64,000 nt of DNA. It comes from a virus. The DNA is taken from positions 20,022-84,021 of the IMG/VR virus record IMGVR_UViG_3300042987_003796. One strand, given 5' to 3'. This document shows positions 724 to 53,016 of this stretch, piece after piece. The notes beneath the pieces are model-generated. The model was not told the origin of the DNA. It saw nothing but the letters and a program-made list of their open reading frames with translations, and ran no database searches. A program made the position numbers and the translations under genes. The first letter of the stretch is position 1; every line of letters begins with the position of its first letter.

Positions 724-3700
724 ATGGCTGATAATTTGACTACGGCAACAATTGATGTAAGAGCAAACACAAGGGGCTTAGAAAAAGATATTCTAAAAGC
801 TCTTAAAACCGTTGAATTTTCTGAGATAAATACAAAGAAAAGTTCGCAGGCTCTTGGTAGAATAACTGGACAGGTTTCTGAATTTAATAAAAGCCTGGAA
901 GCGTCTAATGCTCGCGTAGTTGCTTTCGGTGCGTCTGCTGGGGCTATTTTTGCTGTCGAAAAAGCTTTTTCAAGCTTAATTTCTTCTACGATAGAGGTGC
1001 AGAAAAAACTTACAGATGTAAATATTCTTCTTAATTTATCTTCCTCTGGTTTGCAAAAATTTGGAGATAGCTTATTTGATATAGCTAAAAATACAGCTCA
1101 GTCTTTTTCTACTGTTGCAGACGCCGCTACCGAGCTTTCTCGTCAGGGTCTTGGCGTTGAAGAGACATTAAAAAGAACAAATGCCGCGTTAGTTTTGACT
1201 AGACTCAGCGGACTTGATGCAAAATCTAGCGTTGATGCGTTGACCGCTACATTAAACTCTTTTGCTGGGTCTGCGCTTGATGCGGTAGAGGTAGTTAATA
1301 AATTAGCAAACGTTGACGCCGCTTTTGCTGTTAGTTCTGCTGATCTTGCCAATGCTATTAGTCGCGTTGGTTCTACTGCTGTTGATGCTGGGGTATCCTT
1401 AGATGAATTAATTGCTTTAGTTACTTCTGCTCAACAAACTACGGCGAGAGGTGGAGCTGTAATTGGTAACTCTTTTAAAACTATTTTTACGCGTTTGCAA
1501 AGAGGAAAAGTTCAAGATTTGCTTGGCTCTCTTGGGGTCGATACAACAGAAGGACAAAGTGCGATAAGTTTATTACAACAACTTGCGGCAACTTATGATA
1601 CTCTTGGAGCGGCTCAAAAATCTTACGTTGCAGAGCAGGTTGGTGGCGTTTTCCAAATCAACATTTTAAAAGCAGCTTTATCTGATTTGGGTAAGGAGTA
1701 TAGTATTTTTGGAAGAGCTTTAGATACTTCATTAAGCTCAACAGATGAAGCTATTAGAAGAAATGAACTTTTAAATCAAACTATTTCTGCCTTATCTAGT
1801 CAAGCCGTTTCTGGATTGCAGCAGGCGGCGAGCAAAATCGGCTCTATTGTTTTTGAACCTAACGCAAAGGGTTTTCTTTCTGGTTTTAATAATTTATTAG
1901 ATTCTTTTAATAATATAGATGCAGAAAGCGCTGGTGGAAAGTTAATGACTGGATTTTTTAAGGGTATTGGTGACTTTATATCTGGTCCTGGAGCAGTTTT
2001 AGCTACCGCTGTTCTTGTAAAATTATTTTCCAATTTAGCAAAATTTGCAGCTGGGTCAGCAAAAGAATTACTTGGAACTAATAAAGCTGCACAACAACAG
2101 GCTGCTATAGAGCAAAGTATTTTAAGTATACTTCAAAAGAATAGTCAATTTACTAGTCAGATCTTGAGTGGTAAAATGACAACAGTTCAGGCAGAAAAGG
2201 AATTATTGACTTATTTAACTGCTCAATCAAATATCCTTAGGGAGCAGGAAAGATTAAGCAAAATTATTGGTGCAAATTTGATGACAGCTGGAGTTAGTAT
2301 TGGGTCAAGTGGTATTCCAATTGTAGCTGCATCAAAAGGTAAAAAGGCTGCTTCATCTGGATTTATACCAAACTTTGCATCAGATCAGGCGATTGGTCAG
2401 GCGATGGAGAATGCTGGAGCTAGACAGCATGGATACAAAGCTGGAAAAGCTAAAAAAACAACTATTCATGATGGTAATGGAAAATCATTCAAATCTTTTG
2501 TTAATAGCAAAGAGGATGTAAAAACTTTTACTAATTCCGCTGGCAAGAAAGCTACAATAGTTCGTCCTCCAAATGGGTTTGGTGAAAATACTCAATATGC
2601 TGCTGGTGGATTTGTTCCTAATTTTGCAAAAAATAAAAATGAAGATTCGATAAGAAAAGGTGTGTTGTTTGAAAAACGTTTGAATAAAGCCCTTAGTGGA
2701 TCTGCCTCGTTTTCTCCTAATGCTCCAATGGATTTTCCTCTCCCAACTGGTTATGGAAATGACTATGAGATAAGAAGAAAAATTGGAATTAGTGATGCTT
2801 CTATATATGGAGATGCAAAGCTTACTAGAAGTAGAAAAAGCGAACAGAGTTTATTAGACAAATATTTAAGAACGCCAGAGGGAGTTAAGGATTTTCTTTC
2901 AGCAAAAGAAACTTCTAGAGGGTTTATTAATTTAAATCCGAATGGATTATCAATGTTGTTTTCTGGGTCTGGATCTGATTCAAGGGGCATATCTTATATT
3001 TCCAGTATAAATACTCAGCTTTCTGCTGGCGCAAAACGTTTGATTAGTTCAAGATTTGGTAAAAATCATAAAAAAAGCAGAACATTGGCAATGCCTTATA
3101 TTGCTGATAAAATAAACGAAAAAAATTTATCTGGATTAAGTTCTGGTTTTATTCCTAATTTTGGAAAAATGCAAGATCTTTATAAAAATACGAAGATGCG
3201 CGAAGGAAAGGATGATCCTTTTGGCAAAAGAGCTGCTAAGGCTAATTTAGCAGCTAAAAAGGGTATTCCAATTAAAGATCTTGGAAACTTGCCATATACA
3301 ATGATTCACCCTGGTGGTGGTAGTAATTTTCAAGCCTCTGCTAGTTATACTAAAAAAGATAAAAAAACAAATTCTTCAACTCAATATGTTGGAAAAATAT
3401 GGACTGCTGGATTAGATGCAAGCAAGTTAAATCGTAAAACTGTTCAAGATAGAGTTGGAGATGCGCTAGTTACAGAAGCAAATAATTTAACAAAAATTTT
3501 CAATCCTTCTGGGAGTGGGCAATTTAGTAACTATAGTCAGTTGTCAAATACCGGATCTGTATTTAGTGCAGCTGGCACTGTTTTTGAGTCAGCGGTCAGA
3601 AAAGCGTTTAATGTTTCTGCTCAAGGTCAAGGAGATAGGATAGATTTTCCAAATCCATCCTCTGAGCTTAGATCTTTCTTTGGAAATGCTCCAGGACCTT

Positions 3701-6700
3701 ATGAGGCAAAAATTTCAAATGACGATACAAATAGGTCAAGTACTCTTTCTAAGTGGATAGCTGTAAATGGATTAAGTGGTGGATTTATTCCTAGCTTTGC
3801 TAATTCTAAGAATAGGCTGTCATTTTCTTATAAGGATAAAGATGAATTTGGAATTAGTGAAATTGAAGCTATAATGAGCGGTAAAAAAGTTGGTTCATTT
3901 AGTTATGCGGAAGATAGACCCGGAATAGTAGATGTTGGAGACCTTACAGTTAATAAAGGAGAAAGAGGAAAGGGTATAGGGAGCGCGCTTTATAAAGAAG
4001 CAATAAAAAGAAACGCCGGCAAAAAAATGAAGGGGCAATTATTGCCACAGATGAATCGCTTATTAGAGAAAATAAAAAAAGGCGAACCCGTTTCTGCTGA
4101 GACCTTATACCCACAAATAAAGAGAGCCGATCTTGCTAAAAGTTCTGTTTTTGAGGTTTATGGGCATAAGGGTTTAGAAGCAGAAAAAATGACGCGTGAT
4201 CAGTTTACGTCATTTGTTAATGCAAAAATTACGGAATTAAAAAAAGACCCGAAAAGATTGCAAAGCTATTTTGGAAATGTAGAAGCTGACGAGTATGGCG
4301 GACTTGGAGTGGATTTACAAACTCAACATTCTTCTGGATTTATTCCTAATTTTGCAAGCGGAATAATAACTGGAGACGTCATTCGGGGAAATGAATATAA
4401 AAGCGTTTTAGATTTTCTTGCAAAAACAAATAAACCTGTTAGAACTATTATTGGTCCGTCTGGCTCTGGAAAAACAACAATGGCTTCGAAAAGTGGCGGC
4501 TCTATTGTTAAGTCATTTAACGATTTAGCGGGATTTGATAGTTATATTCTTGATAGAGCTACGATGTCTATGCCAAAAGACGAAATAGTTTCAGAAAATT
4601 TAAAAAAGATATTTCGTAAATCTGGAGAAAGCGGCGCTTTAGATTTATTGGTTGGCTCTAGAAATACTATAAAATCTTTACGCGAAAAAAGGGCAAAAGA
4701 AGGAGACTCTTTAATTCCGGATAGAAAACAATTTACTTCTGGAAGTGGAGGTATTTCATCTTTTGTAAAGGGCGCTAGGGAATTTGCGTCTGAATATCCA
4801 GGAGCTTCTGTTTCTAGAATATTTAAAGATAAGTCTGAATATAAAACAAAAAAAATATTATCAGGGGGGTTTGTTCCCAACTTTGCTTCTCCAAAATTAA
4901 TAGAAGCTATAAATAAAAGAATTAAAAATCCAAACGTTGCCCAAAAGTTAAAAGAGGGAGCTGGCTTGAATGATTCTGCTTATATGAAAGCCGCGAGTAA
5001 GCTTGGAATAGATGTTGCTGGACTAGAGGCATTCCTGCCTCAGATGGGTTTTCCTTTGCGTGGAAAAGATAAGGTATTAAACTTATCAAAAGCTATTGGT
5101 TTTGGTTTTGGTAGATCTTTCATTATAGACGCTCTTAAGATGGGGGATTGGAATTATGTTAAGCCTCAATTTGAATCCGCTGGCTATGTGAAAGATGACT
5201 TTGATAAGTTATCTAAATATGCAAAAACGCCAAAAGGCGAATCTGCCTTAAAATGGTGGAGGTCTAAATCTAGCGGGTTTATTCCAAATTTTGCTTCTCC
5301 AAAGAAAAGCGGAAAGACTTTTAATAGTTACATGAGTAAGCCTTTATCTGATACTATCAGATTCGTGCATCCTCTTAAGCCAGTTATTGATTCAAGTGGT
5401 AATATATCTTTTCCTGGGCTTCCTAAAAAGGGCGCTAAAGCTACAATCATTCATGGGGAGGCAATGGCTGGGCAGGAAAGAATGACTCTCGATGAGTTTT
5501 ATGCGCTTGCTGAAAAAAGAAAGAACGATCCAAGATTCTGGGGTAGAAACTCTTTTGAGTATGTATATAATTCAGGAGGATTTGTTCCTAATTTTGCTGA
5601 CGCATTAAATAATGCAATAGCTAGAGAAAAGTCTTCTGGGTTGTCTAATAGTCAGATATATGTTGACCAGCATAGCTCTTTAAAGAATAAAAATAACCCA
5701 ATGGGTTTAATGGTTGCTAATACTAGGGATGAGCCAGGCGGTGGAATTCAGGGCATTAAAAGAGCTAAGAAAGAGGGAAAGAATCCAAAAACTTATGGAA
5801 CATCTTTTGGGTATGTGCCTAATTTTGCAACTGGACCGATACAACCGTCTCAAGATTACTTGAATGCCTTGAATGAGGCTGTTAAGGCGGTAGATAAGCT
5901 ATCGCAAAGTTCTAAAAAAGCATCTGAGGGTTTAAATCGAGCTTCTGATAGTGTTGAGAAATTTGATAACGGAGCTTCTGGGTCTGGCAAGGGAAAAATG
6001 GGTAAGATTGGTGGATTCCTTAAAGATAATGCTTTAACTGTAGGTTTTGGTTTGCAGTCTATAGCTAGTATGGCTGGTGAATACGCTGGAAATGACGATA
6101 CTAAATCTGGTCGCGCAATTAAGGCTGGAGCAGGCGCGGTTGGAGATATTGCTAGTTTTACAGGAACTGGGGCTATGATTGCTGGACCTTGGGGGGCTGC
6201 TGCTGGTTTCGCTGTAGGATTAGGAAAAGCTGCGCTTGATTTGTCAAAAGCCTTAACTACTAAAGTTCCAGATATGGAAAAAGCTCTTCAGACTAGCTCT
6301 GATGCAATGAATAGATTTGGTGAATCTGGTCAAAAGCTATTGCAACTTAATGAGCAATATGGTGACGCGTTAAATTCTGGAAATCCTGGTCAGGCTGCTG
6401 ATATAATGGTTAAAACTCAAAAGGCGTATGCGGAAGAGTTAAGTAAATTAACTCAAGCTCAAAGAGATTCATTTATTTCAGCAGTTGCTCAGGGTAAGGG
6501 GCAAGAAGAATATGCAAAAATCCTTGGCGAAATGCAGGATTCTGTTAGAGCCTCTGAGTCGGCTTTGTCTTTGCAAAAATTTAGTGAGAGCAAGGGCTTT
6601 TTTGGTGGACCTGATAAAAAACTTATATCTGGAATAGATAAAACTTTAGTTTCTGATTTGACAAAGGGTCTTGACGCAGATGCGATTAAAAAAGCTTTAG

Positions 6701-9700
6701 AAAATGCTTCCCCTGTTCTTACTGATAAGAGCGCGGGAACAGAAAATCAAGCTATTGCATTAATGAAAAGCCTAGCTCAGTCAGAGAGTCTTACAGTAGA
6801 TCAAAAAGCTAATTTTGAAAAGATTATTGATTCTTTTGCTTCTGCGGCGGCGCAAACAGATTTAGGAGCAGTTTCTGAGGCTTTCGTTGAAGGAATTCAG
6901 TTAAAGCCTAAATCATTTGAAGATGTTCAAAAAGCTCAAGAGGCGTATAAAAAATCCCAAGAAATAAACAATGCAAAAATAAAAGAAGAGATTGCTATTA
7001 GAGAAAAAGCAAATGCTTCTTTATTGCAGCTTCAATCTGAAACGGAAGCTATATATACTAGCTTCAATGATTCTCTTGAAAGATTTATTTCTAGTGTTGA
7101 AACAGCCGCAAAAATGCGAGCTGCGTCAGTAGAGTTCAAGCAAGAATTTTATTCTGAAGGCGGAGTTCCAAGCGCCGCTGAGTCGCAAAAAGAAAAAAAT
7201 ATAGTTCAGGCTTCGAGGGATAATTTGACGGTTGATATTTATAAATCTCAAGTTGAGGCTTCTAATAATTTTAATTCCGCTGTTAAGGATTTAGTTGGAG
7301 GTCTTGATATTGACATAGCAAAGCTTGGCGTCGGCGGTCAGTCGATGGATCAGCAGAATCAGCTGCTTGGCGTACAGTCTTCTATACAGAAAGCATTGTT
7401 GCCAATTCAGGGGATGATATTAAAGGGAGACTATGAAGGGGCAAGACAAAAAACAAGCGAGGCTCTTTCTGGATTAAAGCCAGAAGAAGTTAGTGCGGTT
7501 GGCGTTGACGCGATAACAAAAGTTGGTCAGCAATTAGATCAAACATTGCAGGATAGCGCTAGGAAATTAGATCAGATTAAACAAAATTCACAAAAAGATC
7601 TTGCTATTCAAGCTCAGCAATTAGTTTTTCAAAGAGCTATGTCTAAACTTAGTCAAGCTCAAGGCTTTGGTGGAACAGACATAAAAGGTTTAATTACAGA
7701 TAATGGAGGAGAGTCATTTCAGCAGGCTATTTCTTCTTTGAAAGATCTAAAAACGTTGGGATATAATCAAAAAGATTTGCAAAAGGGGTACGTAAAGGGC
7801 GGTGGAGCTGAAACATATGGAATAAAAGATAAAAAAGCTAATGCTGCGATGAGCGGAAAAGTTATTGATTTTTATGGAGCTGCCAGTAAAATAATCGGAA
7901 GTCCTGTTTTGTCTACCCAATCTAAGGATTTTGGCGCTTTAGCTCAAGCGGTCTCAGACCAGATAAGAAACCAGATGGATAAGTTCAAGGCTGCTGGAGA
8001 AGGCGTTGTTGACCCTGCTGTTTTTAGTAGAATGGAAAAAGCTCTTGCCACATTAGGTGGGGGAGATATGGTTGCTCAGTTAAAAATATTTAAAAATATT
8101 GGAGTTGCAGATGTTGGTGGAAAGCAAGTAATGGATGAAGCTTTAAAAACTTATAGCGGTGGTCAGTTTGCAAATTTGAGCCCAGAGCTTAAGAAGGCAT
8201 TTGAAAGCACTACAGATGAAGGGGCTGCTGCTACTTTATTATTAGTCGCTGTACAAGATAAGCAAACCCAAAGTCTAAATACAGGATTTAATTTTTTATC
8301 TGGCATTGGAGGGCAAACAAATGACTTATTGTCAAAACAACCGGACGCAATCGCTGCAGCAATAGGAGCGGTTTTAGAAAAAGGTAGAGCCGATTCTGAG
8401 GCGCAAAAAGTTAATCGAGAAGCTGCGTCGCTAGACAAGCAGTTCTTTGATAGTAAGGCTAAACTGAAAGAAGCTAATAAAGGCGTCGATTCAGCTCAAG
8501 CCCAAGTTGATTCTATTGTTGAATCTTTAGGTGGAAATGCTAGTGGATCATCTATTGAGGATTTTATTAAATCCATGCAGGTTAGTCAAAAAGATAAAGA
8601 TAAGGCTAAGTCTATAACGTCTTTAGGTAGGAATGAATATATTAATTATAAAACATCGCTGGAGATGACTCCAACAGAAATATTGTCAGGGTTACCAACT
8701 CCAAGGAGCGACAAAGCCAAACAAGAGTCGGCAAAAAAATATGACGAAGCTGTGGCTCTTCAAGAAAAAGTAAAAAAACTTGATGCATTGAAAGCCGCAT
8801 CTCAGCAGGTTAGTAGTAAAAAATCTGAAGCTGTAGGTATTTCTAATGAAATAAAAGAAATCAATAAAAAATATGATGCGCTTGCGCCAGATATTCAAGC
8901 TAAAAACGATGCCGCAAAAAAGGCTTCTGAAGTTGCTGCGCAAAGCAGAAATCTAGTTCTTGATAAGAAGCCATTGCAGGATTCTATGGATTATTACGCA
9001 AATGATAAAAAAGCTAGAGAGGCTGCTTTAGCTCAATCTTTGGCGACAGAAAATCTCAAAAAAACAAAACAGCAAAAACAAACTCTAGATAGAACGTCTG
9101 GGGCAGAAAAGGCTATGAGCCCTACTGGAAAGCTAGATACTTATGAAAATATAGCGATTACTAAAGCTGGCGGCGCAAACCAAGCTGCTTTCCAAGATTT
9201 ATTGTCTCAAATGGTTGTGCCGAGTTTTGATAAATTTAAAGATGTTTATGCGTCTCTTGGAGAAGAGGGTGGAGCAAAAGGCGCTTACGAAAGAACCATA
9301 AATGAAATGATTGGACCAGCTCTTTCCCAAAAGCTGCCAATTGTAGAATCTGGATCTCAAGGTCAGCAAATAGCTTCTGCTATTACAGAGGGCATTAAGC
9401 AAGCTTCCGCCTCAGTGGTTGGTGGAGGCATTACACGCGAAGAAAATAAATCGTTGATGAGCAAACATGGGTATGTTGAAGGAGAGGGTTGGAAAAATGA
9501 AAGCGGTAAGGCGGCTTATTCTGAAGAACTTAAAATGTTAAAAGAACAAAAGCAAGCTCAGCAGCAGTTGTCTTCACAGACTAGCGCAAATAATTTACAA
9601 AAAAATGCAGAGCAAGAGCAGGCGAAAAAACAAGAAAGCGAGAAAGCTAAAGCTCAATCTGCTCAGCAAGATCCTACTCAACTTATTTCGAGTATCCTGA

Positions 9701-9987
9701 CTACGGTTCAGCAAATTTCAACCGATCTTCAAAAAAAGGCGGCTGGAACAACGGAACAGCAACCCTCTCAGTCTGGTTCCGCTGGTGGGATAAGTGTAAG
9801 CGCGCCGGTATCATTTAGTGTAAATTCAACAGCCGGAGAAGGAAAAGATGCTGCGTCTGCGATTGCGGAACAAATAAAGGTGGGGCTATCTTCATTCTTG
9901 TCTTCTCCAGAATTTATAGGAAAAGTTACATCTATTGCTAACCAAGCTGCTGGAAATAAAACTCCTCCAACTTCACTTCCTAAGTAA
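724..9987 (+). CDS. Tail tape measure protein (3087 aa) with an internal array of repeat-delimited cargo domains
   Basis: N-terminal TP901-type TMP region (AATELSRQGL, VDAAFAVSSADLANAISRVGSTA, GGAVIGNSFKTIFTRL); very long Ala/Gln/Lys-rich helical C-terminal half; hydrophobic Gly/Ala patch (GAMIAGPWGAAAGFAVG); followed by tail-like genes. Confidence 0.9.
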   Translation: MADNLTTATIDVRANTRGLEKDILKALKTVEFSEINTKKSSQALGRITGQVSEFNKSLEASNARVVAFGASAGAIFAVEKAFSSLISSTIEVQKKLTDVNILLNLSSSGLQKFGDSLFDIAKNTAQSFSTVADAATELSRQGLGVEETLKRTNAALVLTRLSGLDAKSSVDALTATLNSFAGSALDAVEVVNKLANVDAAFAVSSADLANAISRVGSTAVDAGVSLDELIALVTSAQQTTARGGAVIGNSFKTIFTRLQRGKVQDLLGSLGVDTTEGQSAISLLQQLAATYDTLGAAQKSYVAEQVGGVFQINILKAALSDLGKEYSIFGRALDTSLSSTDEAIRRNELLNQTISALSSQAVSGLQQAASKIGSIVFEPNAKGFLSGFNNLLDSFNNIDAESAGGKLMTGFFKGIGDFISGPGAVLATAVLVKLFSNLAKFAAGSAKELLGTNKAAQQQAAIEQSILSILQKNSQFTSQILSGKMTTVQAEKELLTYLTAQSNILREQERLSKIIGANLMTAGVSIGSSGIPIVAASKGKKAASSGFIPNFASDQAIGQAMENAGARQHGYKAGKAKKTTIHDGNGKSFKSFVNSKEDVKTFTNSAGKKATIVRPPNGFGENTQYAAGGFVPNFAKNKNEDSIRKGVLFEKRLNKALSGSASFSPNAPMDFPLPTGYGNDYEIRRKIGISDASIYGDAKLTRSRKSEQSLLDKYLRTPEGVKDFLSAKETSRGFINLNPNGLSMLFSGSGSDSRGISYISSINTQLSAGAKRLISSRFGKNHKKSRTLAMPYIADKINEKNLSGLSSGFIPNFGKMQDLYKNTKMREGKDDPFGKRAAKANLAAKKGIPIKDLGNLPYTMIHPGGGSNFQASASYTKKDKKTNSSTQYVGKIWTAGLDASKLNRKTVQDRVGDALVTEANNLTKIFNPSGSGQFSNYSQLSNTGSVFSAAGTVFESAVRKAFNVSAQGQGDRIDFPNPSSELRSFFGNAPGPYEAKISNDDTNRSSTLSKWIAVNGLSGGFIPSFANSKNRLSFSYKDKDEFGISEIEAIMSGKKVGSFSYAEDRPGIVDVGDLTVNKGERGKGIGSALYKEAIKRNAGKKMKGQLLPQMNRLLEKIKKGEPVSAETLYPQIKRADLAKSSVFEVYGHKGLEAEKMTRDQFTSFVNAKITELKKDPKRLQSYFGNVEADEYGGLGVDLQTQHSSGFIPNFASGIITGDVIRGNEYKSVLDFLAKTNKPVRTIIGPSGSGKTTMASKSGGSIVKSFNDLAGFDSYILDRATMSMPKDEIVSENLKKIFRKSGESGALDLLVGSRNTIKSLREKRAKEGDSLIPDRKQFTSGSGGISSFVKGAREFASEYPGASVSRIFKDKSEYKTKKILSGGFVPNFASPKLIEAINKRIKNPNVAQKLKEGAGLNDSAYMKAASKLGIDVAGLEAFLPQMGFPLRGKDKVLNLSKAIGFGFGRSFIIDALKMGDWNYVKPQFESAGYVKDDFDKLSKYAKTPKGESALKWWRSKSSGFIPNFASPKKSGKTFNSYMSKPLSDTIRFVHPLKPVIDSSGNISFPGLPKKGAKATIIHGEAMAGQERMTLDEFYALAEKRKNDPRFWGRNSFEYVYNSGGFVPNFADALNNAIAREKSSGLSNSQIYVDQHSSLKNKNNPMGLMVANTRDEPGGGIQGIKRAKKEGKNPKTYGTSFGYVPNFATGPIQPSQDYLNALNEAVKAVDKLSQSSKKASEGLNRASDSVEKFDNGASGSGKGKMGKIGGFLKDNALTVGFGLQSIASMAGEYAGNDDTKSGRAIKAGAGAVGDIASFTGTGAMIAGPWGAAAGFAVGLGKAALDLSKALTTKVPDMEKALQTSSDAMNRFGESGQKLLQLNEQYGDALNSGNPGQAADIMVKTQKAYAEELSKLTQAQRDSFISAVAQGKGQEEYAKILGEMQDSVRASESALSLQKFSESKGFFGGPDKKLISGIDKTLVSDLTKGLDADAIKKALENASPVLTDKSAGTENQAIALMKSLAQSESLTVDQKANFEKIIDSFASAAAQTDLGAVSEAFVEGIQLKPKSFEDVQKAQEAYKKSQEINNAKIKEEIAIREKANASLLQLQSETEAIYTSFNDSLERFISSVETAAKMRAASVEFKQEFYSEGGVPSAAESQKEKNIVQASRDNLTVDIYKSQVEASNNFNSAVKDLVGGLDIDIAKLGVGGQSMDQQNQLLGVQSSIQKALLPIQGMILKGDYEGARQKTSEALSGLKPEEVSAVGVDAITKVGQQLDQTLQDSARKLDQIKQNSQKDLAIQAQQLVFQRAMSKLSQAQGFGGTDIKGLITDNGGESFQQAISSLKDLKTLGYNQKDLQKGYVKGGGAETYGIKDKKANAAMSGKVIDFYGAASKIIGSPVLSTQSKDFGALAQAVSDQIRNQMDKFKAAGEGVVDPAVFSRMEKALATLGGGDMVAQLKIFKNIGVADVGGKQVMDEALKTYSGGQFANLSPELKKAFESTTDEGAAATLLLVAVQDKQTQSLNTGFNFLSGIGGQTNDLLSKQPDAIAAAIGAVLEKGRADSEAQKVNREAASLDKQFFDSKAKLKEANKGVDSAQAQVDSIVESLGGNASGSSIEDFIKSMQVSQKDKDKAKSITSLGRNEYINYKTSLEMTPTEILSGLPTPRSDKAKQESAKKYDEAVALQEKVKKLDALKAASQQVSSKKSEAVGISNEIKEINKKYDALAPDIQAKNDAAKKASEVAAQSRNLVLDKKPLQDSMDYYANDKKAREAALAQSLATENLKKTKQQKQTLDRTSGAEKAMSPTGKLDTYENIAITKAGGANQAAFQDLLSQMVVPSFDKFKDVYASLGEEGGAKGAYERTINEMIGPALSQKLPIVESGSQGQQIASAITEGIKQASASVVGGGITREENKSLMSKHGYVEGEGWKNESGKAAYSEELKMLKEQKQAQQQLSSQTSANNLQKNAEQEQAKKQESEKAKAQSAQQDPTQLISSILTTVQQISTDLQKKAAGTTEQQPSQSGSAGGISVSAPVSFSVNSTAGEGKDAASAIAEQIKVGLSSFLSSPEFIGKVTSIANQAAGNKTPPTSLPK
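2359..5829 (+). repeat. Nine dispersed in-frame peptide repeats G(F/Y)(I/V)P(N/S)F(A/G) within the TMP
   Basis: Copies start at 2359 GFIPNFA, 2608 GFVPNFA, 3145 GFIPNFG, 3781 GFIPSFA, 4336 GFIPNFA, 4867 GFVPNFA, 5275 GFIPNFA, 5578 GFVPNFA and 5809 GYVPNFA; usually preceded by SS/SG/AG. Confidence 0.95.
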
Positions 9988-13303: not shown

Positions 13304-15265
13304 ATGTCATCTATTAATTCTTCTGGCTTTAAATATAGACTCGATTCATTAGGTATAACTAGTGAATCATTGCTTGTTGCATATGATTTTGTTTCTGGAT
13401 CTAATTTTCAGCAAGGTTTTTTAAATACTCCCCCATGGGTTACTGGCTCGACGTTTAGTGGAAAACTTAATGGAATTTATAGTAATTTTTATACAAAATC
13501 TGGAAGCGGTTATTTTAATGGGTTTAATTCTGTTTCAATCTCTGGAAAAATTCCAGAAGACGATTTTACTTTTTTATTTTGCTATGAAAAACAAAGAACG
13601 GGCGAAGAAATTTTATTGAGTTCTGCGGCCGGAGGCTCTTTTGCTTCTGCATCTGGATTGACTGTTGGAATTAATGACGCAAATAAGCTTTATTTAGAAT
13701 ACTGGAGCCCAGTAGTAGGAAAGAAAACTTTAGATTATACAGATAATATAAGCTCTAAAAATTTAGTTTTCTTTAGCAAGACATTTGATGAATTTCAATT
13801 AGGTATTTTTGATCCAATTGGCGGAGATTTATCTTTTTCTTCAGCTTCAATAGATCAAATCGAGGGATATTCTCACTCTGATTCTTTTATAATTGGGGCA
13901 AATAACTCGTCTTCTTACTGGTCTAAAGGCAGGTCTTTTAATGGATATTTTGATGATTTTTATTGTATAAGTGGTAAAAAACCGAACGACTATTTTATAG
14001 AGCTTTTTAGCGGATTTTATTCGATTCCTGTAACTGGATTGATAAGTGGTCAATATCAGGTATGTAATTATGTTTCTGTTATGAGTGGTAGCGGGGTCAA
14101 TCTAGGAACTGGGATAACGGGATATGAAACTAGGGTTACATATACTACCGGATACGTTCCAACTGGCTGTTTTAATAGTGGATACTCTTATCTTGTTGGA
14201 ACTGGAATTACTGGTTATGAGGAAAGACTTATTGGGACTCAAAAAGATGCTTGTGATCAAGACGTGCCTATATATGTAAGAACAGCGTTAACTGGAAATA
14301 TTTATGCAACTGGTTATACTTATGCCTGTAGCGGATCTGGTCAAGTAATAACGCCAACCTATACAAATTATCCATTGACCGGAATGTTAACTGGTCAAGT
14401 TTTTGTTGAGGTTCTTTCTGGTATTTGTTCTAATTTTACTGGCTATTATCCAGATGGTCTTCAATTAGATTCAGGCTTTCTATCGTCTCTCGGATTTGAT
14501 TCTGTATATTTGCTTAATCAATGCAGCAATATTGTTACGCATGAATGTTTTTTACATACTGGTGGATTTGCATCTAATAATATAAATTTAACTCCGTCTT
14601 TTGATTTAGTAGCAAATGACTGGATTATTCCAAATATTCACTCTGGCTCAGGAAAAAATTTATTTTTTAATAATGGACAGTTAATGCTAGAAAGTGGGTG
14701 GTCGTCTTATCAGGAAAAAGGTGTGACAAAATATAATATAACGGGAAATATTTTTTTGGACGGCAATATTATTAGGTCAAATGGAGACTGCAGCTTAGAA
14801 GATTCTATTATATATGATAACTCAAATTTTATTAGCGGCGTATCTGTTTATCTTTTAACCGGATTAGGGTCTTCTGCTAGTTTTAATTCTATTTTGAATT
14901 CTAGTTATCAAGATTTTTCCATTTTTCTAAATGGAGTCAAAATGACTAGTGGATTTGATTATTTTAATTCTAATTTTATTTTTAATGTGCCGCCTTCTTC
15001 TGTTTTAACTAAGGTTAATAATAATTATATTTCTGATGGTGCAAAATATATAACTGGATCTGGTAATCTTTTAACGCTGGGATCTAATGGCTCGTCTTCT
15101 TTTTTAAAAAAATCTTCTCAAGTTTATTTAAACGGCTTGAGACAATTGATAAATAGCGACTATTTTGAAATTTCTAGATTCTCTATTTTAAGTGGCTGTC
15201 CAGCTCAAGAAGTAAGCAATAACCAACTAGTATATTCTTTTAATGAAGAGTTTTGGAATATTTAA
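13304..15265 (+). CDS. Putative virion protein with an N-terminal LamG/concanavalin-like domain and TG/SG-rich region
   Basis: DDFTFLF, FIIGAN...FNGYFDDF pattern typical of LamG-like domains; VFLNG/YLNGLRQ tail-fibre-like motifs at the C-terminus. Confidence 0.55.
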   Translation: MSSINSSGFKYRLDSLGITSESLLVAYDFVSGSNFQQGFLNTPPWVTGSTFSGKLNGIYSNFYTKSGSGYFNGFNSVSISGKIPEDDFTFLFCYEKQRTGEEILLSSAAGGSFASASGLTVGINDANKLYLEYWSPVVGKKTLDYTDNISSKNLVFFSKTFDEFQLGIFDPIGGDLSFSSASIDQIEGYSHSDSFIIGANNSSSYWSKGRSFNGYFDDFYCISGKKPNDYFIELFSGFYSIPVTGLISGQYQVCNYVSVMSGSGVNLGTGITGYETRVTYTTGYVPTGCFNSGYSYLVGTGITGYEERLIGTQKDACDQDVPIYVRTALTGNIYATGYTYACSGSGQVITPTYTNYPLTGMLTGQVFVEVLSGICSNFTGYYPDGLQLDSGFLSSLGFDSVYLLNQCSNIVTHECFLHTGGFASNNINLTPSFDLVANDWIIPNIHSGSGKNLFFNNGQLMLESGWSSYQEKGVTKYNITGNIFLDGNIIRSNGDCSLEDSIIYDNSNFISGVSVYLLTGLGSSASFNSILNSSYQDFSIFLNGVKMTSGFDYFNSNFIFNVPPSSVLTKVNNNYISDGAKYITGSGNLLTLGSNGSSSFLKKSSQVYLNGLRQLINSDYFEISRFSILSGCPAQEVSNNQLVYSFNEEFWNI

Positions 15266-17714: not shown

Positions 17715-18845
17715 ATGATACTTTCTAGCGGCGATATATTTAAAAGTTTTGCAGAACAAAGATGTTTTTCTTTTGATTGTGACTTATCAATAAAAACCTC
17801 TACTGGCATTTCTAAGATTTTAGCTTCAGGTGAGACATCTTCAGTTTCATTATTCTCTTTTAAGAGTGGTAGGATTTTTGATTGTTTTAATCGATTCGTA
17901 AAATCTTATTCTCCATCTGAGTCCATTAATATTTCTGGAAACTTTTGTAGCGGTATTTTTGGATACTATATAGATCAATATCCTGTTTGTTTAAATTCTA
18001 ATGTTTCTACTTCTACTTCTTCTTTTGAAAATTTAGTTTTTTCAACTAGCGGATCTGAAATTGAATTTTTTGTTGATATTTTTGGAGAGGTTAAGCCTAA
18101 ATATGAATTGGTATTTCCAAGTCAGAGTCAAGTCACGGGTAGTCCTATAACTGGTTTTTTAAAAAATACTTCTTCGAATGCGTTTCAGAGTTTTAAACTT
18201 TTCTCTGGGTCTTCGTATTTTCCTGGGGCTGATTATAATATATCATCTACAGTACAGGGACTTAAAATAAAGCCAAATAATTCTGGACAAATAGTGTTAT
18301 CTTTTTCTGGCGGTACATCTTTTTCTTTAGACTCTAATAAGCAGGCTTTGCCTATATATGGAAATTTATATTTGGATACAAATTTTGGAAGCATTGATAT
18401 TCCAGTAAGTATACCATTAAAATCTTCTCCTTTTTATTATATAGATTTTCAAGAAGATTCTAACATACAATACGGTGAGACAGGAAAATTTTGGTCTTTC
18501 GAATTAGAAAGACAAGCTTGTTCTGGAACTAGATTTGAATTTATTTTAGATGACGTGAGGTGGCTTGATCCATATAATTCATTTTCAGATAAGTTTTTTA
18601 TAAAAACTGGTTATAATAATGGAGCTTTTCTTTCATCCTCTGTTCCATACAATATAGCAAGAGGTATTTATGCTGCAACTGGATATATTTCTGGAGCTGG
18701 TTGCTCTGGAGACGACACGTTTAATGTTAGATTTGAAATACTCCACTCTCATCCTAGTGGAATATATGCAAATAAATTTAAATATTCTATAAGCGGAATA
18801 GAGGAAAAATTTTTGTTTTCTGGGTTTTTAGAAGAAGGTTTATGA
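17715..18845 (+). CDS. Hypothetical (probable virion) protein
   Basis: 376-aa ORF in the structural operon, S/G/F-rich. Confidence 0.5.
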   Translation: MILSSGDIFKSFAEQRCFSFDCDLSIKTSTGISKILASGETSSVSLFSFKSGRIFDCFNRFVKSYSPSESINISGNFCSGIFGYYIDQYPVCLNSNVSTSTSSFENLVFSTSGSEIEFFVDIFGEVKPKYELVFPSQSQVTGSPITGFLKNTSSNAFQSFKLFSGSSYFPGADYNISSTVQGLKIKPNNSGQIVLSFSGGTSFSLDSNKQALPIYGNLYLDTNFGSIDIPVSIPLKSSPFYYIDFQEDSNIQYGETGKFWSFELERQACSGTRFEFILDDVRWLDPYNSFSDKFFIKTGYNNGAFLSSSVPYNIARGIYAATGYISGAGCSGDDTFNVRFEILHSHPSGIYANKFKYSISGIEEKFLFSGFLEEGL

Positions 18846-18867
18846 TAATAAAGGAGGTATTGTATTT

Positions 18868-19443
18868 ATGTCTTTATCTATAAGAGGCGGGTCAACTATT
18901 AAAAATAGAATAATAACTGGAAGTAGTGCAAACGAAGATAAGTGCCCATTTTCTGTTACAGCATATGAAACAGAAACAGTTGGCGAATATAAAGCTTATG
19001 TTGAAGATGGCGAAATAAATTTCACAAGTTTTTATAGTAAAAATGGAGGGGGGGCTGCGGCAGCACAAAGATCGATTTCTCCAAATTGCGAACTGGCATT
19101 AATGATAATTTTCACTAGTGACGATTATGAATATAAGTCTATAAAAGAAATTTACGTTGTTGATTTCAGTAGCGATAATAGAAGCCAGTACAAAACTCAA
19201 GTAACTGACTACGGCGATGGAGCAATGCAAATAACAATGTATATTCCTTTGGCTTATATTTATTTATATACTCCTCCTGAATCACCGCCAGGCGCTCGCC
19301 CGCAAGTAATTGTTAAACAATATTGGTGTGGAAATTTAGATTTTAGATTATATTATACAACCGTAAATGGAGCCCCATTCTTTGAATTTTTTAAGACTAT
19401 TGGGTTAACTCCGGGTGAGATTCCAATGCCTCCTCCCGAATAA
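18868..19443 (+). CDS. Hypothetical (probable virion) protein
   Basis: 191-aa ORF with AGGAGG upstream; last gene of the structural operon. Confidence 0.5.
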   Translation: MSLSIRGGSTIKNRIITGSSANEDKCPFSVTAYETETVGEYKAYVEDGEINFTSFYSKNGGGAAAAQRSISPNCELALMIIFTSDDYEYKSIKEIYVVDFSSDNRSQYKTQVTDYGDGAMQITMYIPLAYIYLYTPPESPPGARPQVIVKQYWCGNLDFRLYYTTVNGAPFFEFFKTIGLTPGEIPMPPPE

Positions 19444-19449
19444 TAAAAT

Positions 19450-20688
19450 TTATAATTGTCCGGATATTTGTTCGCACCACCCCTTAGAAGATGAATGAGG
19501 CCAAACTACCCATTTTTTAGGTAAGGTTTCGGTATTGAACTCTCTCCATATTTTACAGTATTTGTCAGGATCTCTCATCATTCTTGAGATTTCTGCTTTA
19601 TCTGCGTCTTTTCTAAAGACTGTTTCTCCTTTTTCGTCATGGAAAGCTACAACCCAGAACTCGTAATCTTTTTCTGGAACTTGACTGTATTGAATATCTA
19701 TGCAATGTTTAAATATTTTTAAAAATGATTTTTCATAGTCTTCTTCATTTTCATAAGAAGGGTTAGGAGGATAGTTTTTATCTAAAGTAAACTTTTGAAC
19801 AGCCCTCCTTTTAAAGGAGATGCCAGCATATCTTTCATAATCTTGAAGAGTTCTTTCTTTTCCAAATCCATATGTTCCAAAATCTATATTTTCTGTGTTC
19901 TTTTCCATTCCGAAAAGAATGCGGTTTCTTTTATGGCATTTGGAGTTTGCTTCCCACCATTGTTTGTGGTCATCCCAATGTTTTGTTCTGCCTTTTCTTG
20001 TATACTCGTGCCACGCTATGATTTTATGTGGATGAAAAAGATCGTATCCATGAGTATATGCCCTGACAGCTATTGATATTTCCTCTCCGTGAAAATAATA
20101 TTCTGGATCGTGCTGAACGTCCTTGCAAAAGGAGCCGTCTGCAAAGCAAAAGTGAGCAGAATAAAATCTTGATTTAACTGGCTCATTTAAGTCTTTAAAA
20201 TTAGGAATTGAGGCGGGTAGAAAAAAAACTATGCCTTCTGGCGTGAATCTGTCAAAGTCCATTCTCCACGGGACTTTTTCTCTTCCATTTGGGTCGTTGT
20301 CTGGATCAAAGCTTGATATGTATCCAGTAAGAAGAGGTTTCTTATATCCTTTTGTTCGAAGTTTTTCAATCATCGAGATTAATTCTTCGTCCCAATTTTC
20401 TACGAATCTATGATGACTATCTAATTGAAGAGTATAAGTTTCGTTATTATATTCTTGCTGTATTTTATTTCTTGCCCAGCAAGCTCCTTTTGACTCTTTA
20501 TAGGGTATGTCAAGAATTTTAAATCTTGAATCATTTTTATATTTATCTAAATTTTCATTTTCGCCGTGTTGCCAAGCAATACAAAATCTTAAATTTTCTG
20601 GATGTTTTGCATTTTTTATGCAATCATCTAGAGTTGGAATTAATTGAGGATCTTTGTATGAGGCTATTTGAATAAATATAGTAGACAT
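19450..20688 (-). CDS. Glycosyltransferase, GT60/Skp1 GlcNAc-transferase-like (GT-A fold)
   Basis: TIFIQIASYKDP, SKGACWAR, YTLQLDSHHRF..NWD, FHGEEISIAVRAYTHGYDLFHP. Confidence 0.8.
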   Translation of the reverse strand: MSTIFIQIASYKDPQLIPTLDDCIKNAKHPENLRFCIAWQHGENENLDKYKNDSRFKILDIPYKESKGACWARNKIQQEYNNETYTLQLDSHHRFVENWDEELISMIEKLRTKGYKKPLLTGYISSFDPDNDPNGREKVPWRMDFDRFTPEGIVFFLPASIPNFKDLNEPVKSRFYSAHFCFADGSFCKDVQHDPEYYFHGEEISIAVRAYTHGYDLFHPHKIIAWHEYTRKGRTKHWDDHKQWWEANSKCHKRNRILFGMEKNTENIDFGTYGFGKERTLQDYERYAGISFKRRAVQKFTLDKNYPPNPSYENEEDYEKSFLKIFKHCIDIQYSQVPEKDYEFWVVAFHDEKGETVFRKDADKAEISRMMRDPDKYCKIWREFNTETLPKKWVVWPHSSSKGWCEQISGQL

Positions 20689-22320: not shown

Positions 22321-22926
22321 ATGAAAATAAAAACGGTAATAGGCATATCTGGTTTTGCAAGATCGGGAAAAGACACTCTCGCCTCATTGGTTGATTTGTC
22401 TTTGAATCAAAATGGAACAAAATCTAAGATTTTCTCTTTTGCTAGTGCCCTAAAACTTGACATGAAAGATTTTTTTGAACAAAAACTTGGAATATCGCCA
22501 TTTACAAACGATACCATTTTAAAAGAAAAAATAAGACCAATTTTAATCTCTTATGGAAATGTTCAAAGAACTCTCTCTAACGGAACCTATTGGTTTAATA
22601 GACTAAAGCCAGAAATAAATAAATTTTTTGAAACAGGTGGAGACGTAGCAGTTATTCCAGACCTTAGATTCAAGGAGTATGAATTCGACGAGTACGACTT
22701 CGTAAGATCCTTTGGATCTAGCTTTATAATAACCGTATCAAGAAAATTAGATGATGGCTCTTTCAACAAGCCGGCACATGAATCCGAGGAAAAAAGTTTT
22801 CCATTCTTCAAAAATGTAGCAGATTTTAATCTTATCTGGAAGACTCACACAGAAAAATCTTTAATAGAAAAAGATGCAAAAGAGTGTATAGACTCAATTT
22901 TTAAATTTTTAAATTCAAAAAAATGA
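22321..22926 (+). CDS. Deoxynucleoside monophosphate kinase
   Basis: GISGFARSGKDT P-loop, SFASALK, IPDLRF..E, HESE motifs. Confidence 0.8.
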   Translation: MKIKTVIGISGFARSGKDTLASLVDLSLNQNGTKSKIFSFASALKLDMKDFFEQKLGISPFTNDTILKEKIRPILISYGNVQRTLSNGTYWFNRLKPEINKFFETGGDVAVIPDLRFKEYEFDEYDFVRSFGSSFIITVSRKLDDGSFNKPAHESEEKSFPFFKNVADFNLIWKTHTEKSLIEKDAKECIDSIFKFLNSKK

Positions 22927-23898: not shown

Positions 23899-24990
23899 AT
23901 GGGAAGCTTTAACTTAGAAATACCTATAAATAAGGTATCTTTCGGCAATGTTAGTATAAATATACTATTTGAGCTTTTTAAACTTGGAAAAAAGCCCAAC
24001 ATAATGCCAATCGGTGGTCAGGCAGATTTTGGAGCTTTTGCCAATTTAGTTGATAAAGACTTCTTAGAATGGTTCAAGTCCTGCTTTTCAGGAACTCAGT
24101 CAAGAATAAATAGAAACGACCCAGGTTTCAAATTATGGCACTTAAATGGGTCGCTAAATTCTTACTCAAAAGATCAGCACTTGTTTACCTTTTATGAACT
24201 TGATTCCCCAACTTCCGCAGAATTAAATATCGCGAAAAATCAAAAAACTTTATTTTTATCCTCGCTTTATTCTGTTGATGTTTTTTCTAAATTAGGCTGT
24301 AAAAACGTCACCCATTGTCCATTGGGATTTGATTCAAAGTCTTTTTTTAAAATTGAAAAAAAGCAAGACGATAAAATAGTTTTTGCCTTAGCGGGAAAAT
24401 TAGAAAAAAGAAAACAGCATCACAAAGTGTTAAAGGCTTGGGCAAAAAAATACGGAAATAATCCGAACTATTTGCTTAATTGCGCCATTAGCAATCCATT
24501 TTTAAGCAAGGAACAGCAGGACTCTTCGATTTCTTCAGTTCTTGAAGGTAAAAATTATTTTAATATTAATTTTTTGCCATTTATGGATACTAATTTAGTC
24601 TACAATAACTATTTAAATAATAATGATATTATTATTGGAATGTCTGCCGCAGAAGGATGGGGTCTTCCAGAGTTCCAAAGCGTTGCCCTTGGAAAGCATT
24701 CTGTCATCTTAAATGCCCACTCTTATAAAGATTGGGCTGATGAAAAAAATTCAGTACTTGTAAATCCAAGCGGTAAAATCCCTTGTTACGATGGATTGTT
24801 TTTTAATGAAAAACAAGAATTCAACCAAGGTTCATATTTTGACTGGAACGATGAAGAATTTATTTCCGCATGTGAAACAGCCGAAAAAAGATTCAAGGAT
24901 AATCCAAATAACCTAGAAGGAGAAAAGCTTACTAAAAAATTCACATGGGAAAAAACTGTAAATATTATACTTGATTCAATGGGGGTATAA
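23899..24990 (+). CDS. Glycosyltransferase (GT-B, GT4-like)
   Basis: GKLEKRK and EGWGLPEFQ motifs. Confidence 0.75.
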   Translation: MGSFNLEIPINKVSFGNVSINILFELFKLGKKPNIMPIGGQADFGAFANLVDKDFLEWFKSCFSGTQSRINRNDPGFKLWHLNGSLNSYSKDQHLFTFYELDSPTSAELNIAKNQKTLFLSSLYSVDVFSKLGCKNVTHCPLGFDSKSFFKIEKKQDDKIVFALAGKLEKRKQHHKVLKAWAKKYGNNPNYLLNCAISNPFLSKEQQDSSISSVLEGKNYFNINFLPFMDTNLVYNNYLNNNDIIIGMSAAEGWGLPEFQSVALGKHSVILNAHSYKDWADEKNSVLVNPSGKIPCYDGLFFNEKQEFNQGSYFDWNDEEFISACETAEKRFKDNPNNLEGEKLTKKFTWEKTVNIILDSMGV

Positions 24991-25502: not shown

Positions 25503-26474
25503 ATGATTTTCGACGAACAAATTTCACGTAAGCCAAACTTTTATCCCTGGACAGATAGCTTCATAGAAGCCATGCATAACGGTTTTTGGACAGACAAAGA
25601 ATTTTCTTTTAAATCTGATGTCCAACAATTTAAGGTAAACCTTAGCGAACAGGAAAAAGAAATAATAATACGAACCCTTTCCGCAATAGGGCAAATAGAA
25701 ATTGCCGTTAAAACCTTTTGGGCTAAGCTCGGCGAAAACCTCCCACATCCTTCATTACAAGACCTCGGCTACGTAATGGCTAATACAGAGGTTATTCACA
25801 ATAACGCCTATGAAAGATTAATATCCACACTTGGATTAGAAGACGTCTTTGAAAAAAATTTAAAACTTGATTGGATCCAAGGCAGGGTTAAATATTTAAA
25901 AAAATATACTCATCGATACTATAAGGATTCTAAAAAACAATACGTTTATGCCTTAACGCTTTTTACATTATTTGTTGAAAACGTTTCTTTATTCTCTCAA
26001 TTTTATATTATAAATTGGTTTGCCCGTTTCAAAAACGTGCTTAAAGACACGGATCAGCAAGTAAAATATACAAGAAACGAAGAAAATATACACGCCTTAG
26101 TCGGAGCCAAAATTATCAATACGATAAGAGATGAATATCCAGATCTATTTGACGCAGACTTTATTGAAAAAATTCTTTCAGAGGCAAAAGAAGCATACGA
26201 GTCAGAATCTAAGATAATTGACTGGATGGTAAACGGAATAAAAGAAGAGGGCTTAAATGCTCAAGTATTAAAAGAATTTGTAAAAAATAGAATAAACGAA
26301 TCGTTAAAGATGATCGGATTCCCCACGGCTTTCGAAATTGATAAAAGCCTAGTTTCCTCAACTATGTGGTTTGAGGAAGAATTACTTGGAAACAACATGG
26401 TTGACTTTTTTCATTCAAGACCAACCGAATACTCAAAGAAAAACCAATCTTTTTCAGAAGAAGACCTTTTTTAA
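25503..26474 (+). CDS. nrdB: Ribonucleotide reductase class I beta subunit
   Basis: EVIHNNAY, FVENVSLFSQF, EENIH diiron motifs; DFFHSRPTEY C-terminus. Confidence 0.92.
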   Translation: MIFDEQISRKPNFYPWTDSFIEAMHNGFWTDKEFSFKSDVQQFKVNLSEQEKEIIIRTLSAIGQIEIAVKTFWAKLGENLPHPSLQDLGYVMANTEVIHNNAYERLISTLGLEDVFEKNLKLDWIQGRVKYLKKYTHRYYKDSKKQYVYALTLFTLFVENVSLFSQFYIINWFARFKNVLKDTDQQVKYTRNEENIHALVGAKIINTIRDEYPDLFDADFIEKILSEAKEAYESESKIIDWMVNGIKEEGLNAQVLKEFVKNRINESLKMIGFPTAFEIDKSLVSSTMWFEEELLGNNMVDFFHSRPTEYSKKNQSFSEEDLF

Positions 26475-26487
26475 TACAAAAAAATAA

Positions 26488-26811
26488 ATGAATAATAATA
26501 TTATAGAAATAAACGACGGCAATTATAAAAGCATATTAACAATTAATAAAAATGTGTTAGTAGATTTTTATGCAACGTGGTGCGGTCCATGCAAAATGAT
26601 AAATCCTATTCTTGAGCTTGTAGCCGCAGATAAAACATTAAAAACAATCATAGCAAAAGTAAACGTAGATAGCTCGCCTGAATTTTCTACTCTAATGAAA
26701 ATTAGAGCGGTGCCATCTATTTTTTTCTTTAAAAATGGCAAGTCTCTTGGTAGATTTTCAGAGCAACCTACGCAAAAAAATATTATTAATTTTATTAAAA
26801 ATAATGAGTAA
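26488..26811 (+). CDS. trxA: Thioredoxin
   Basis: VDFYATWCGPCK. Confidence 0.92.
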   Translation: MNNNIIEINDGNYKSILTINKNVLVDFYATWCGPCKMINPILELVAADKTLKTIIAKVNVDSSPEFSTLMKIRAVPSIFFFKNGKSLGRFSEQPTQKNIINFIKNNE

Positions 26812-52974: not shown

Positions 52975-53016
52975 CTTTATATATAAATAATTTAATTATT
53001 AGAGATAATATAAATT

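Follow-up and report, generated by a model that had tools for sequence, protein, structure and literature searches.

The stretch of DNA considered here (the window, 64,000 nucleotides) corresponds to bases 20022–84021 of the 84-kb IMG/VR virus record IMGVR_UViG_3300042987_003796, for which CheckV estimates a completeness of ~55%. The gene of interest is an open reading frame (ORF) of 3087 amino acids (aa) at positions 724–9987 of the plus strand, whose residues 120–308 match PF10145 (PF10145.14, PhageMin_Tail; 84.9 bits against a gathering score of 33.2, E 9e-24). Because several PHROG tape-measure families match it as well (E 1.6e-40 and 1.4e-36), the product can be identified by sequence as a TP901-type tape measure protein (TMP); an initial reading of the letters and their translations (the sequence-only reading) had already taken it for a TMP.

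The first half of this TMP contains nine copies of the peptide G[FY][IV]P[NS]F[AG], each encoded by 21 nucleotides (nt). The copies divide residues 546–1702, the span from motif 1 to motif 9, into eight modules of 70–205 aa (Table 1), and we refer to this region as the array. Only 7e-5 copies would be expected from the composition of the TMP itself, and no further copy is present in the six frames of the 84-kb record. The array is framed by a hydrophobic stretch (aa 414–444) and by a Gly-rich stretch (aa 1763–1844), the latter being kept in relatives with the consensus IASFAGTGAM..GP.GAA. The sequence-only reading had described nine peptide-level repeats separating eight modules of about 70–205 aa; the pattern falls exactly where it had placed them, and both the measured module lengths and the codon counts agree with its description.

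Cassette exchange at the delimiter codons

The nine DNA copies of the delimiter vary synonymously, with GGA/GGT/GGG, ATA/ATT, CCA/CCT/CCC, AAC/AAT and GCA/GCT all represented. To compare codon choice we used 38 motif copies from five TMP genes. Codons for Gly, Phe, Val and Asn within the motifs follow gene-wide usage, but those for Ile, Pro and Ala are skewed (ATT 88% versus 49% elsewhere; CCT 58% versus 35%). Since synonymous codons are used about as freely in the motifs as in the rest of the gene, conservation acts mainly at the peptide level, and codon usage indicates that the motif is under selection there.

A word-indexed search with aa 540–1710 returned 375 giant TMPs, with query coverage ranging from 99% down to 7%, and an exhaustive HMMER search returned 541 cluster representatives, of which the top 150 are all TMP-like or TMP fragments. 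In 911 unique instances the delimiter has the logo A-[AS]-[SG]-G-[FY]-[IV]-P-N-[FY]-A, where Gly and Pro are conserved at ~100% and Asn at 98%. The information content decays gradually on the upstream side, but falls from 3.7 to 0.8 bits directly after the final Ala. The residue that follows the motif is small in 64% of instances, and L, F, Y or W is found there in 6.6% of cases, compared with 12.5% at the following positions (Fisher p 5e-8, although the instances are not independent). In a library of 8.4 million papers and preprints, the strings GFIPNF, GFVPNF, GYIPNF and GYVPNF do not appear in the phage literature; GFVPNF is mentioned once, in a human serum proteomics study.

Splitting 239 of the TMPs at the motif yields 886 modules that fall into at least 135 families, 77 of them singletons. 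Among 224 TMPs there are 167 distinct architectures, in line with the earlier expectation that module set and order would vary between relatives. The arrays range from 86 to 2047 aa and contain 2–11 motifs, spaced from ~60 to ~1000 aa apart. Position within the array is nevertheless constrained at both ends: the family of the first module here (M1) is first in 63 of its 64 occurrences, and that of the last module (M8), the commonest matched stretch in the library search, is last in 169 of 224 arrays. On a given side, an interior family can have as many as 23 different neighbours, and the M8 family has 39 on its left; several pairs of families are found in both orders. The M3 family is the second commonest overall and the commonest in interior positions (88 modules in 88 of the 239 TMPs). 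The idea that the ruler compensates for array length was also considered and rejected, as array length and C-terminal length are hardly correlated (rho 0.15, 158 relatives).

We aligned the TMP gene by blastn with four related IMG/VR sequences (L008–L011), and the blocks of homology begin and end at delimiters. Blocks from all four stop at gene nt 1907–1914, just past the end of motif 2 (gene nt 1905). Those of L008 and L010 start again at gene nt 4855, where motif 8 begins, and those of L009 and L011 start within 8 nt of that base. Blocks also stop at gene nt 5103–5110 (motif 9 ends at 5106) or at 3629–3637 (motif 5 ends at 3633). Against the TMP P0003, identity is 96% in M5, 68% in M6, 42% in M7 and 39% in the C-terminal part. 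M2 is missing from all of the nearest relatives.

Contigs from four freshwater or lake metagenome runs were also aligned to the window, and every loose end falls at motif 2, 3, 5 or 8. A 58-kb contig (run X3) and a 9.3-kb contig (run X5) from two other studies are 98–99% identical to the window, and each contains an insert of 575 nt flanked by two copies of window positions 4332–4353, that is, at motif 5. The insert amounts to an extra cassette of ~199 aa. In an independent contig of 14.5 kb, M2 (positions 2633 to 3142) gives way to 607 nt of different sequence between motifs 2 and 3. These alignments show modules entering, leaving and changing places by recombination in or beside the motif codons, and for this reason the array is best described as a combinatorial cassette site. 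The suggestion in the sequence-only reading that the motif serves as a microhomology for swapping is compatible with these data, but selection at the peptide level is the dominant signal.

Module folds and surrounding genes

An AlphaFold2 model of aa 540–1710 was built with 50 relatives. All nine motifs lie in segments with a predicted local distance difference test score (pLDDT) below 50. As the motifs have low pLDDT and lie between folded modules, the delimiter can be viewed as a short linear motif that is almost invariant and sits in a flexible linker. Motifs of this type would usually be recognized by a second molecule, which could be a protease or a binding partner. The sequence-only reading implied that the modules fold independently. 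In the model this applies to M1, M3, M4, M7, M8 and part of M6, which are predicted to be separately folding domains, but not to M2 and M5 (Table 1). M1 is predicted to consist of one helix and four strands. In a module-by-module scan M1, M6, M7 and M8 have no Pfam family, and a profile of M8 with its motifs finds nothing among Protein Data Bank (PDB) sequences at E up to 10. We also asked whether M1 and M8 are related bookends; this was rejected at the sequence level (hhalign 0.1%).

Scanned alone, M4 scores 22.2 bits against PF00583 (Acetyltransf_1), above the cut-off of 20.7; in the whole-protein scan the score is 17.6 bits, below the cut-off. Its model matches 1y9k in Foldseek (E 1.9e-4, TM(target) 0.61), and VIA-align gives a Z of 10.6 to RimI 5isv over 125 aligned residues with a root-mean-square deviation of 3.5, with 113 chains at Z ≥8. 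The acetyl-CoA pyrophosphate-binding loop, (Q/R)-x-x-G-x-(G/A), is present as RGKGIG at aa 1081–1086, and R-G-x-G is kept in the family consensus. Sequence and model agree that M4 is a GNAT acetyltransferase fold. This domain is prominent enough to fill the match list when Foldseek and VIA are run with the whole array model. Whole-protein Pfam scans of three relatives (P0024, P0063 and P0036) recognize PF10145 and GNAT alone. By eye, modules of relatives also show candidate motifs of kinase-like, HAD-like and adenylyltransferase-like type.

M5 contains a Walker A loop, GPSGSGKT, at aa 1244–1251. Twelve diverse members of its family share the invariant G, G, K and T of this loop together with K74, R109 and R112. 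A profile of the family matches PDB sequences in the Walker A region only, and across many NTPase classes; Pfam P-loop matches are weak and all lie under their cut-offs. By this loop alone M5 is P-loop NTPase-like, and the more specific label of kinase is unproven, although in our own reading R109 and R112 would suit a kinase-type lid.

M3 is confidently modelled on its own (pLDDT 83, predicted template modelling score 0.73), with both flanking motifs disordered. In 33 sequences of 25–91% identity, E955, D974, F975 and K996 are invariant and E994 is nearly so, and the order of these residues is that of an E..D..ExK signature. No fold relative of M3 is significant: the best matches have an E of 0.1 in the Foldseek PDB search, a Z of 3.5 in VIA and an E of 0.05 in BFVD. 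Bse634I, Cfr10I and a hantavirus endonuclease are among the weak VIA rows (Z 2.9–3.1), and these PD-(D/E)xK entries are no more than a hint. M2 has, by eye, an MDF ... GDAK pattern, and its family aligns to part of the M3 family (hhalign 89%). The sequence-only reading had assigned enzyme motifs to four modules (two PD-(D/E)xK-like, one GNAT and one P-loop kinase). The GNAT assignment and the Walker A loop stand; a kinase is no more than a possible reading of that loop, and the PD-(D/E)xK signature is present without support from the fold.

A search for stand-alone homologues of M3 found only one shorter protein, P0127 (447 aa, on an 11.7-kb ENA contig). It starts at a Met directly after a motif and comprises M3, M4, a motif and ~70 further residues. 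It may be a broken or miscalled TMP, or a free-standing cassette pair.

One module that is absent from this TMP deserves mention. In 26 of 224 relatives the GNAT module is followed by a module of ~190 aa with a conserved TLxHE(L/A)(F/S)H, corresponding to cluster 8 and found in P0005, P0010–P0014, P0024 and others. Pfam does not recognize this HExxH-bearing module; its sequence suggests that it could be zincin-like, acting as a processing or muralytic peptidase. Its length fits the extra cassette found at motif 5, to which it probably corresponds.

Large co-oriented ORFs flank the TMP gene. Its immediate neighbours, including the two ORFs upstream at record positions 18760–19593 and 19633–20676, have no family match in PHROG and Pfam scans, and the same scans find no chaperone, tube or protease family among the ORFs around the gene. 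Tail-fibre-type proteins are encoded upstream of the TMP block (L007 4223–5994 and 7406–9313), where the matches comprise a tip domain (Phage_tail_C), a stretch resembling BppL_N, a PATR repeat and a collagen triple-helix repeat. It is unusual for tail-fibre genes to precede those of the tube and the TMP. Amid these tail-fibre-like genes are two paralogous ORFs of 209 and 184 aa (L007 6750–7379 and 13504–14058; record G000 7750–8379 and 14504–15058) that share nearly the same N-terminus, MSC.Y..(E/D)FI.SV.EEIGEA.GYS.EYLAYWF.

The array has no match in 50,697 GenBank phage records by blastn or tblastn, and hence none among the cultured phages they cover. When bacterial and archaeal genomes were scanned with the first 545 residues of the TMP, no relative was found, and therefore no host or prophage is known. 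The stretch is present in freshwater and lake metagenome runs from 14 studies, and there is no RNA dataset among the sequencing runs that contain it.

The remainder of the window encodes several other functions. There is a full-length transfer-messenger RNA (tmRNA) gene at 52519–52977 on the plus strand (Rfam RF00023, 119 bits against a gathering score of 47, E 2.6e-47), for which ARAGORN gives the tag peptide EAEYILNNADEFLGSVEEESYALAA. Four glycosyltransferase-like genes, at 19450–20688 (−), 23899–24990 (+), 45946–48018 (+) and 48027–49274 (+), have matches that include PF11397 GlcNAc transferase (E 2e-75), the GT1 family and a GT9 heptosyltransferase-like family, an unusual number for a phage. 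Replication and nucleotide genes at 25503–28459, 38025–39527, 42897–45497 and 22321–22926 comprise the small and large chains of ribonucleotide reductase, a DnaB-type helicase, a Pol III alpha-type polymerase and a gene resembling deoxynucleoside monophosphate kinases.

Table 1. Features of the TMP gene, in window coordinates
Feature	Residues or length	Position	Strand	Basis and remarks
TMP gene	3087 aa	724–9987	+	ORF list, translation, PF10145, PHROG
TP901-type minor tail / TMP domain	aa 120–308	1081–1647	+	PF10145.14
Hydrophobic stretch upstream of array	~aa 414–444	1963–2055	+	Kyte–Doolittle, 19-residue windows >1.3
Motif 1, GFIPNFA	aa 546–552	2359–2379	+	Pattern match; pLDDT <50
M1, conserved first module	76 aa	2380–2607	+	Model residues 14–89, pLDDT 67–88
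Motif 2, GFVPNFA	aa 629	2608–2628	+	Pattern match; contig loose ends at 2625–2631
M2, rare module	172 aa	2629–3144	+	Model residues 97–268, pLDDT 30–56, not folded; few homologues
Motif 3, GFIPNFG	aa 808	3145–3165	+	Pattern match; contig loose ends at 3143–3144 and 3163
M3, commonest interior family	205 aa	3166–3780	+	Model residues ~300–480, pLDDT 76–89
Motif 4, GFIPSFA	aa 1020	3781–3801	+	Pattern match
M4, GNAT fold (predicted)	178 aa	3802–4335	+	Model residues 488–665, pLDDT 80–92
Motif 5, GFIPNFA	aa 1205	4336–4356	+	Pattern match; site of extra cassette in near-identical relatives
M5, P-loop NTPase-like	170 aa	4357–4866	+	Model residues 673–842, pLDDT 30–57, not folded
Motif 6, GFVPNFA	aa 1382	4867–4887	+	Pattern match
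M6, all helices	129 aa	4888–5274	+	pLDDT 50–92; model residues 900–970 ~73–92
Motif 7, GFIPNFA	aa 1518	5275–5295	+	Pattern match
M7, small alpha/beta	94 aa	5296–5577	+	Model residues 1010–1079 (C-terminal 70), pLDDT 73–87
Motif 8, GFVPNFA	aa 1619	5578–5598	+	Pattern match; homology blocks start here
M8, most widely conserved, normally last	70 aa	5599–5808	+	Model residues 1087–1156, pLDDT 76–88
Motif 9, GYVPNFA	aa 1696	5809–5829	+	Pattern match; homology blocks end here
C-terminal part, presumed ruler	~1385 aa	5830–9987	+	Low-complexity, helix-favouring sequence
Gly-rich amphipathic stretch just past array	aa 1763–1844	6010–6255	+	Read from translation

Proposed delivery and cleavage, and alternatives

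We propose the following model for how the array might function. The protein is the TMP of a freshwater phage that has not been cultured and whose tail would be long and non-contractile. Its array of putative cargo modules, joined by flexible linkers that bear the motif, lies between the TP901-type domain at the N-terminus and the presumed ruler at the C-terminus. Inside the tail lumen the array would accompany the remainder of the TMP, and it would leave the tail before the DNA to enter the cell envelope or cytoplasm. There the GNAT module, the P-loop NTPase and a possible nuclease-like module could act on host targets before phage genes are expressed. The delimiter would be a short linear motif that is read in trans, most likely by a protease that cleaves behind its last Ala. 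Each module would thereby be separated from its neighbours and from the ruler, much as T5 pb2 is cut between its ruler and enzyme domain. The protease might come from the host or be a different protein of the virion, and in some relatives it might be the HExxH-bearing module.

That the array resides in the lumen and leaves the tail at infection is what we infer by analogy with characterized TMPs. For the delimiter itself, cleavage after Ala is the reading we favour, tentatively, because the motif is present at every junction, its conservation ends abruptly at Ala and the next residue is mostly small. The most general form of the model treats the peptide as a universal load-and-release tag in a large family of freshwater phages, such that any domain between two copies would be packed, injected and freed, with the cassettes serving as immediate-early anti-host or anti-defence effectors. 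We regard this general form as doubtful.

Several observations weigh against the model. (i) Motif 4 is the sole copy here with Ser (AGC) in place of the Asn that is 98% conserved in the family, and the junction between M3 and M4 could behave differently if Asn is needed for function. (ii) M2 and M5, for which the alignment rows are shallow or nearly identical, are not confidently folded, and an enzyme fold is verified for only one of the eight modules. (iii) No protease was found near the tail genes or in the TMP, and there is no HExxH in the TMP, in a record that is ~55% complete. (iv) Processing and delivery are argued from T5 pb2 and P23-45 gp96 and are predicted here from genes alone. (v) The lumen of a tail tube is ~4 nm wide, so that folded modules of ~20 kDa on three chains would be a tight fit and their state in the virion is uncertain. 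(vi) Small residues would be expected to be enriched behind the motif in a simple flexible linker too, and a peptide present in every linker is equally what one would expect of a multivalent docking site.

The last point leads to the principal alternative, in which the array still carries cargo but the peptide is not cut and instead acts as a docking or register element. We consider this possible and nearly as likely as cleavage. Docking onto the lumen of the tail tube, onto a chaperone of tail assembly or onto the other two TMP chains could keep the trimer in register and allow the tube to polymerize beyond each globular module. In that case the modules would remain tethered to the TMP channel while active, as has been proposed for the virion RNA polymerase of P23-45. 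Motifs that are near-invariant and yet lie in flexible linkers are the signature of a partner-bound short linear motif, and the delimiter is confined to the array, exactly where the coiled-coil ruler is interrupted. Moreover, TMPs are trimeric in the tube (PMC10038345), Chaban et al. propose that the P23-45 polymerase remains associated with the TMP pore (PMC10770324), and the PHROG and Pfam scans that found no protease in the record or the TMP are as docking would predict. On the other hand, no partner was identified, and the two ORFs upstream of the TMP gene have no family match; the wide spread of motif spacings argues against a regular register with the tube rings; and the sharp drop in conservation and the small residues after Ala fit a scissile bond somewhat better.

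A second possibility is that the modules serve the virion rather than acting on the host. They might fill the lumen and in this way tune the length or stiffness of the tail, help in assembly or take part in penetrating the envelope. The enzyme-like folds would then be relics or have activities restricted to the cell wall. Most modules do lack a recognizable enzyme family, M1 and M8 are positionally conserved in the manner of structural parts, and one relative (P0074) has a precomputed match to PF02557, a VanY-type peptidoglycan peptidase domain and thus a classical TMP-embedded activity. We nevertheless think virion service unlikely. Near-identical phages show an extreme turnover of their interior modules, as is typical of conflict genes and not of structural parts, the variation in array length is not compensated by the ruler, and a GNAT domain with an intact acetyl-CoA loop and a P-loop NTPase would need cytoplasmic cofactors.

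It is also conceivable that the peptide has no function as a peptide and is kept as a DNA recombination site that is regenerated at each junction. Break points do fall in the motif codons or a few bases from them, and the skew of Ile, Pro and Ala towards one codon could be taken in this sense. The free variation of the Gly, Phe, Val and Asn codons and the synonymous differences among the nine copies here point the other way, and neutral decay would be expected to erase Gly, Pro and Asn residues that are in fact 98–100% conserved across TMPs with <30% identity elsewhere. A pure DNA site is therefore a very unlikely explanation. That the mosaic architectures are assembly artefacts across a repeated 21-base motif is barely credible: short contigs do break at motifs and most relatives come from metagenome assemblies, but the 58-, 14.5- and 9.3-kb contigs from independent studies bridge several motifs in the window's order and so argue against chimeras, the motif copies differ and leave exact repeats shorter than the words normally used in assembly, the same protein can be present on as many as 27 contigs and in several sources, and reading frames are open across all junctions.

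If the modules are delivered, as our model of a lumen-borne and released cargo array predicts, the TMP would provide a modular route for proteins into the cell before transcription, at the time when defence systems decide the outcome of infection. The family would then constitute a catalogue of candidate effectors, with at least 135 cassette families in only 239 proteins, most of them lacking a known family. Were the delimiter truly a load-and-release tag, the array would amount to a natural, evolvable system for protein injection, with effectors that mostly have no known fold, and cargo placed between two tags might be a rule by which foreign proteins could be loaded into phage tails. The model also raises the physical question of how folded domains fit in, and pass through, a tail tube.

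Relation to known systems

Cleavage of a TMP has precedent. In phage lambda, gpH is cut to gpH* during tail assembly. The T5 TMP, pb2, is trimeric, metastable and expelled, and it is cut while the tail is being assembled, after R1127, between a hydrophobic stretch and a metallopeptidase domain, with both pieces staying in the tail (Linares et al. 2023, PMC10038345). Like the protein described here, pb2 is a TMP with an embedded enzyme domain, and a hydrophobic stretch likewise lies beside the array in our case. In pb2, however, a single cut is made after an Arg near the C-terminus and there is one muralytic domain, whereas the arrays described here have up to eleven delimiters in the first half of the TMP, the identified cargo is not muralytic and cutting is a prediction alone.

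A functional parallel is found in gp96 of Thermus phage P23-45, a TMP of 5002 aa. Its N-terminal part works as a virion RNA polymerase, by which the pre-early genes are transcribed (Chaban et al. 2024, PMC10770324). A TMP-fused enzyme is thus active at the very start of infection (PMC10770324), and because this activity was established experimentally, it indicates that enzymes fused to TMPs can reach the host. Both proteins are giant TMPs with a folded enzymatic part towards the N-terminus and a ruler behind it. P23-45 gp96 differs in having one fixed enzyme and no array, and neither a delimiter peptide nor cassette exchange has been described for it. No sequence relation to gp96 was seen.

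Polyvalent proteins combine many effector-type domains in one giant polypeptide and are thought to enter with the DNA; their domain content is variable, and processing into units by a zincin-like MPTase domain has been proposed (Iyer et al. 2017, PMC5512222). The presence of several unrelated domains in one giant phage polypeptide, eight module families in the present case, is a clear similarity. Polyvalent proteins are instead packaged in the head or delivered by conjugation, and PMC5512222 makes no mention of tape measure proteins and describes no delimiter peptide. Their zincin-like MPTase is absent here, there being no HExxH anywhere in the TMP.

Two further comparisons concern the delimiter. 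In viral polyproteins, such as those with picornavirus 3C or potyvirus NIa sites, the recognition sequence of a protease is repeated at each junction. The array resembles them in having a conserved peptide of 7–10 residues per junction, strong non-prime specificity and a small residue next. Viral polyproteins differ in that they encode their own protease, of which none is known here, have a fixed gene order and are not ruler proteins of the virion. In integron-like and polymorphic-toxin cassette systems, unrelated cassettes are exchanged at a conserved boundary element. These systems share with the array a large pool of rare cassettes (77 of the 135 families here are singletons), but exchange in the TMP takes place inside one open reading frame, at an element that codes for a peptide, and with no dedicated recombinase. 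A literature search found no paper describing a cassette array in a TMP. What is new, relative to all of the systems above, is the delimiter peptide, the combinatorial exchange inside a single reading frame and the size of the cassette pool.

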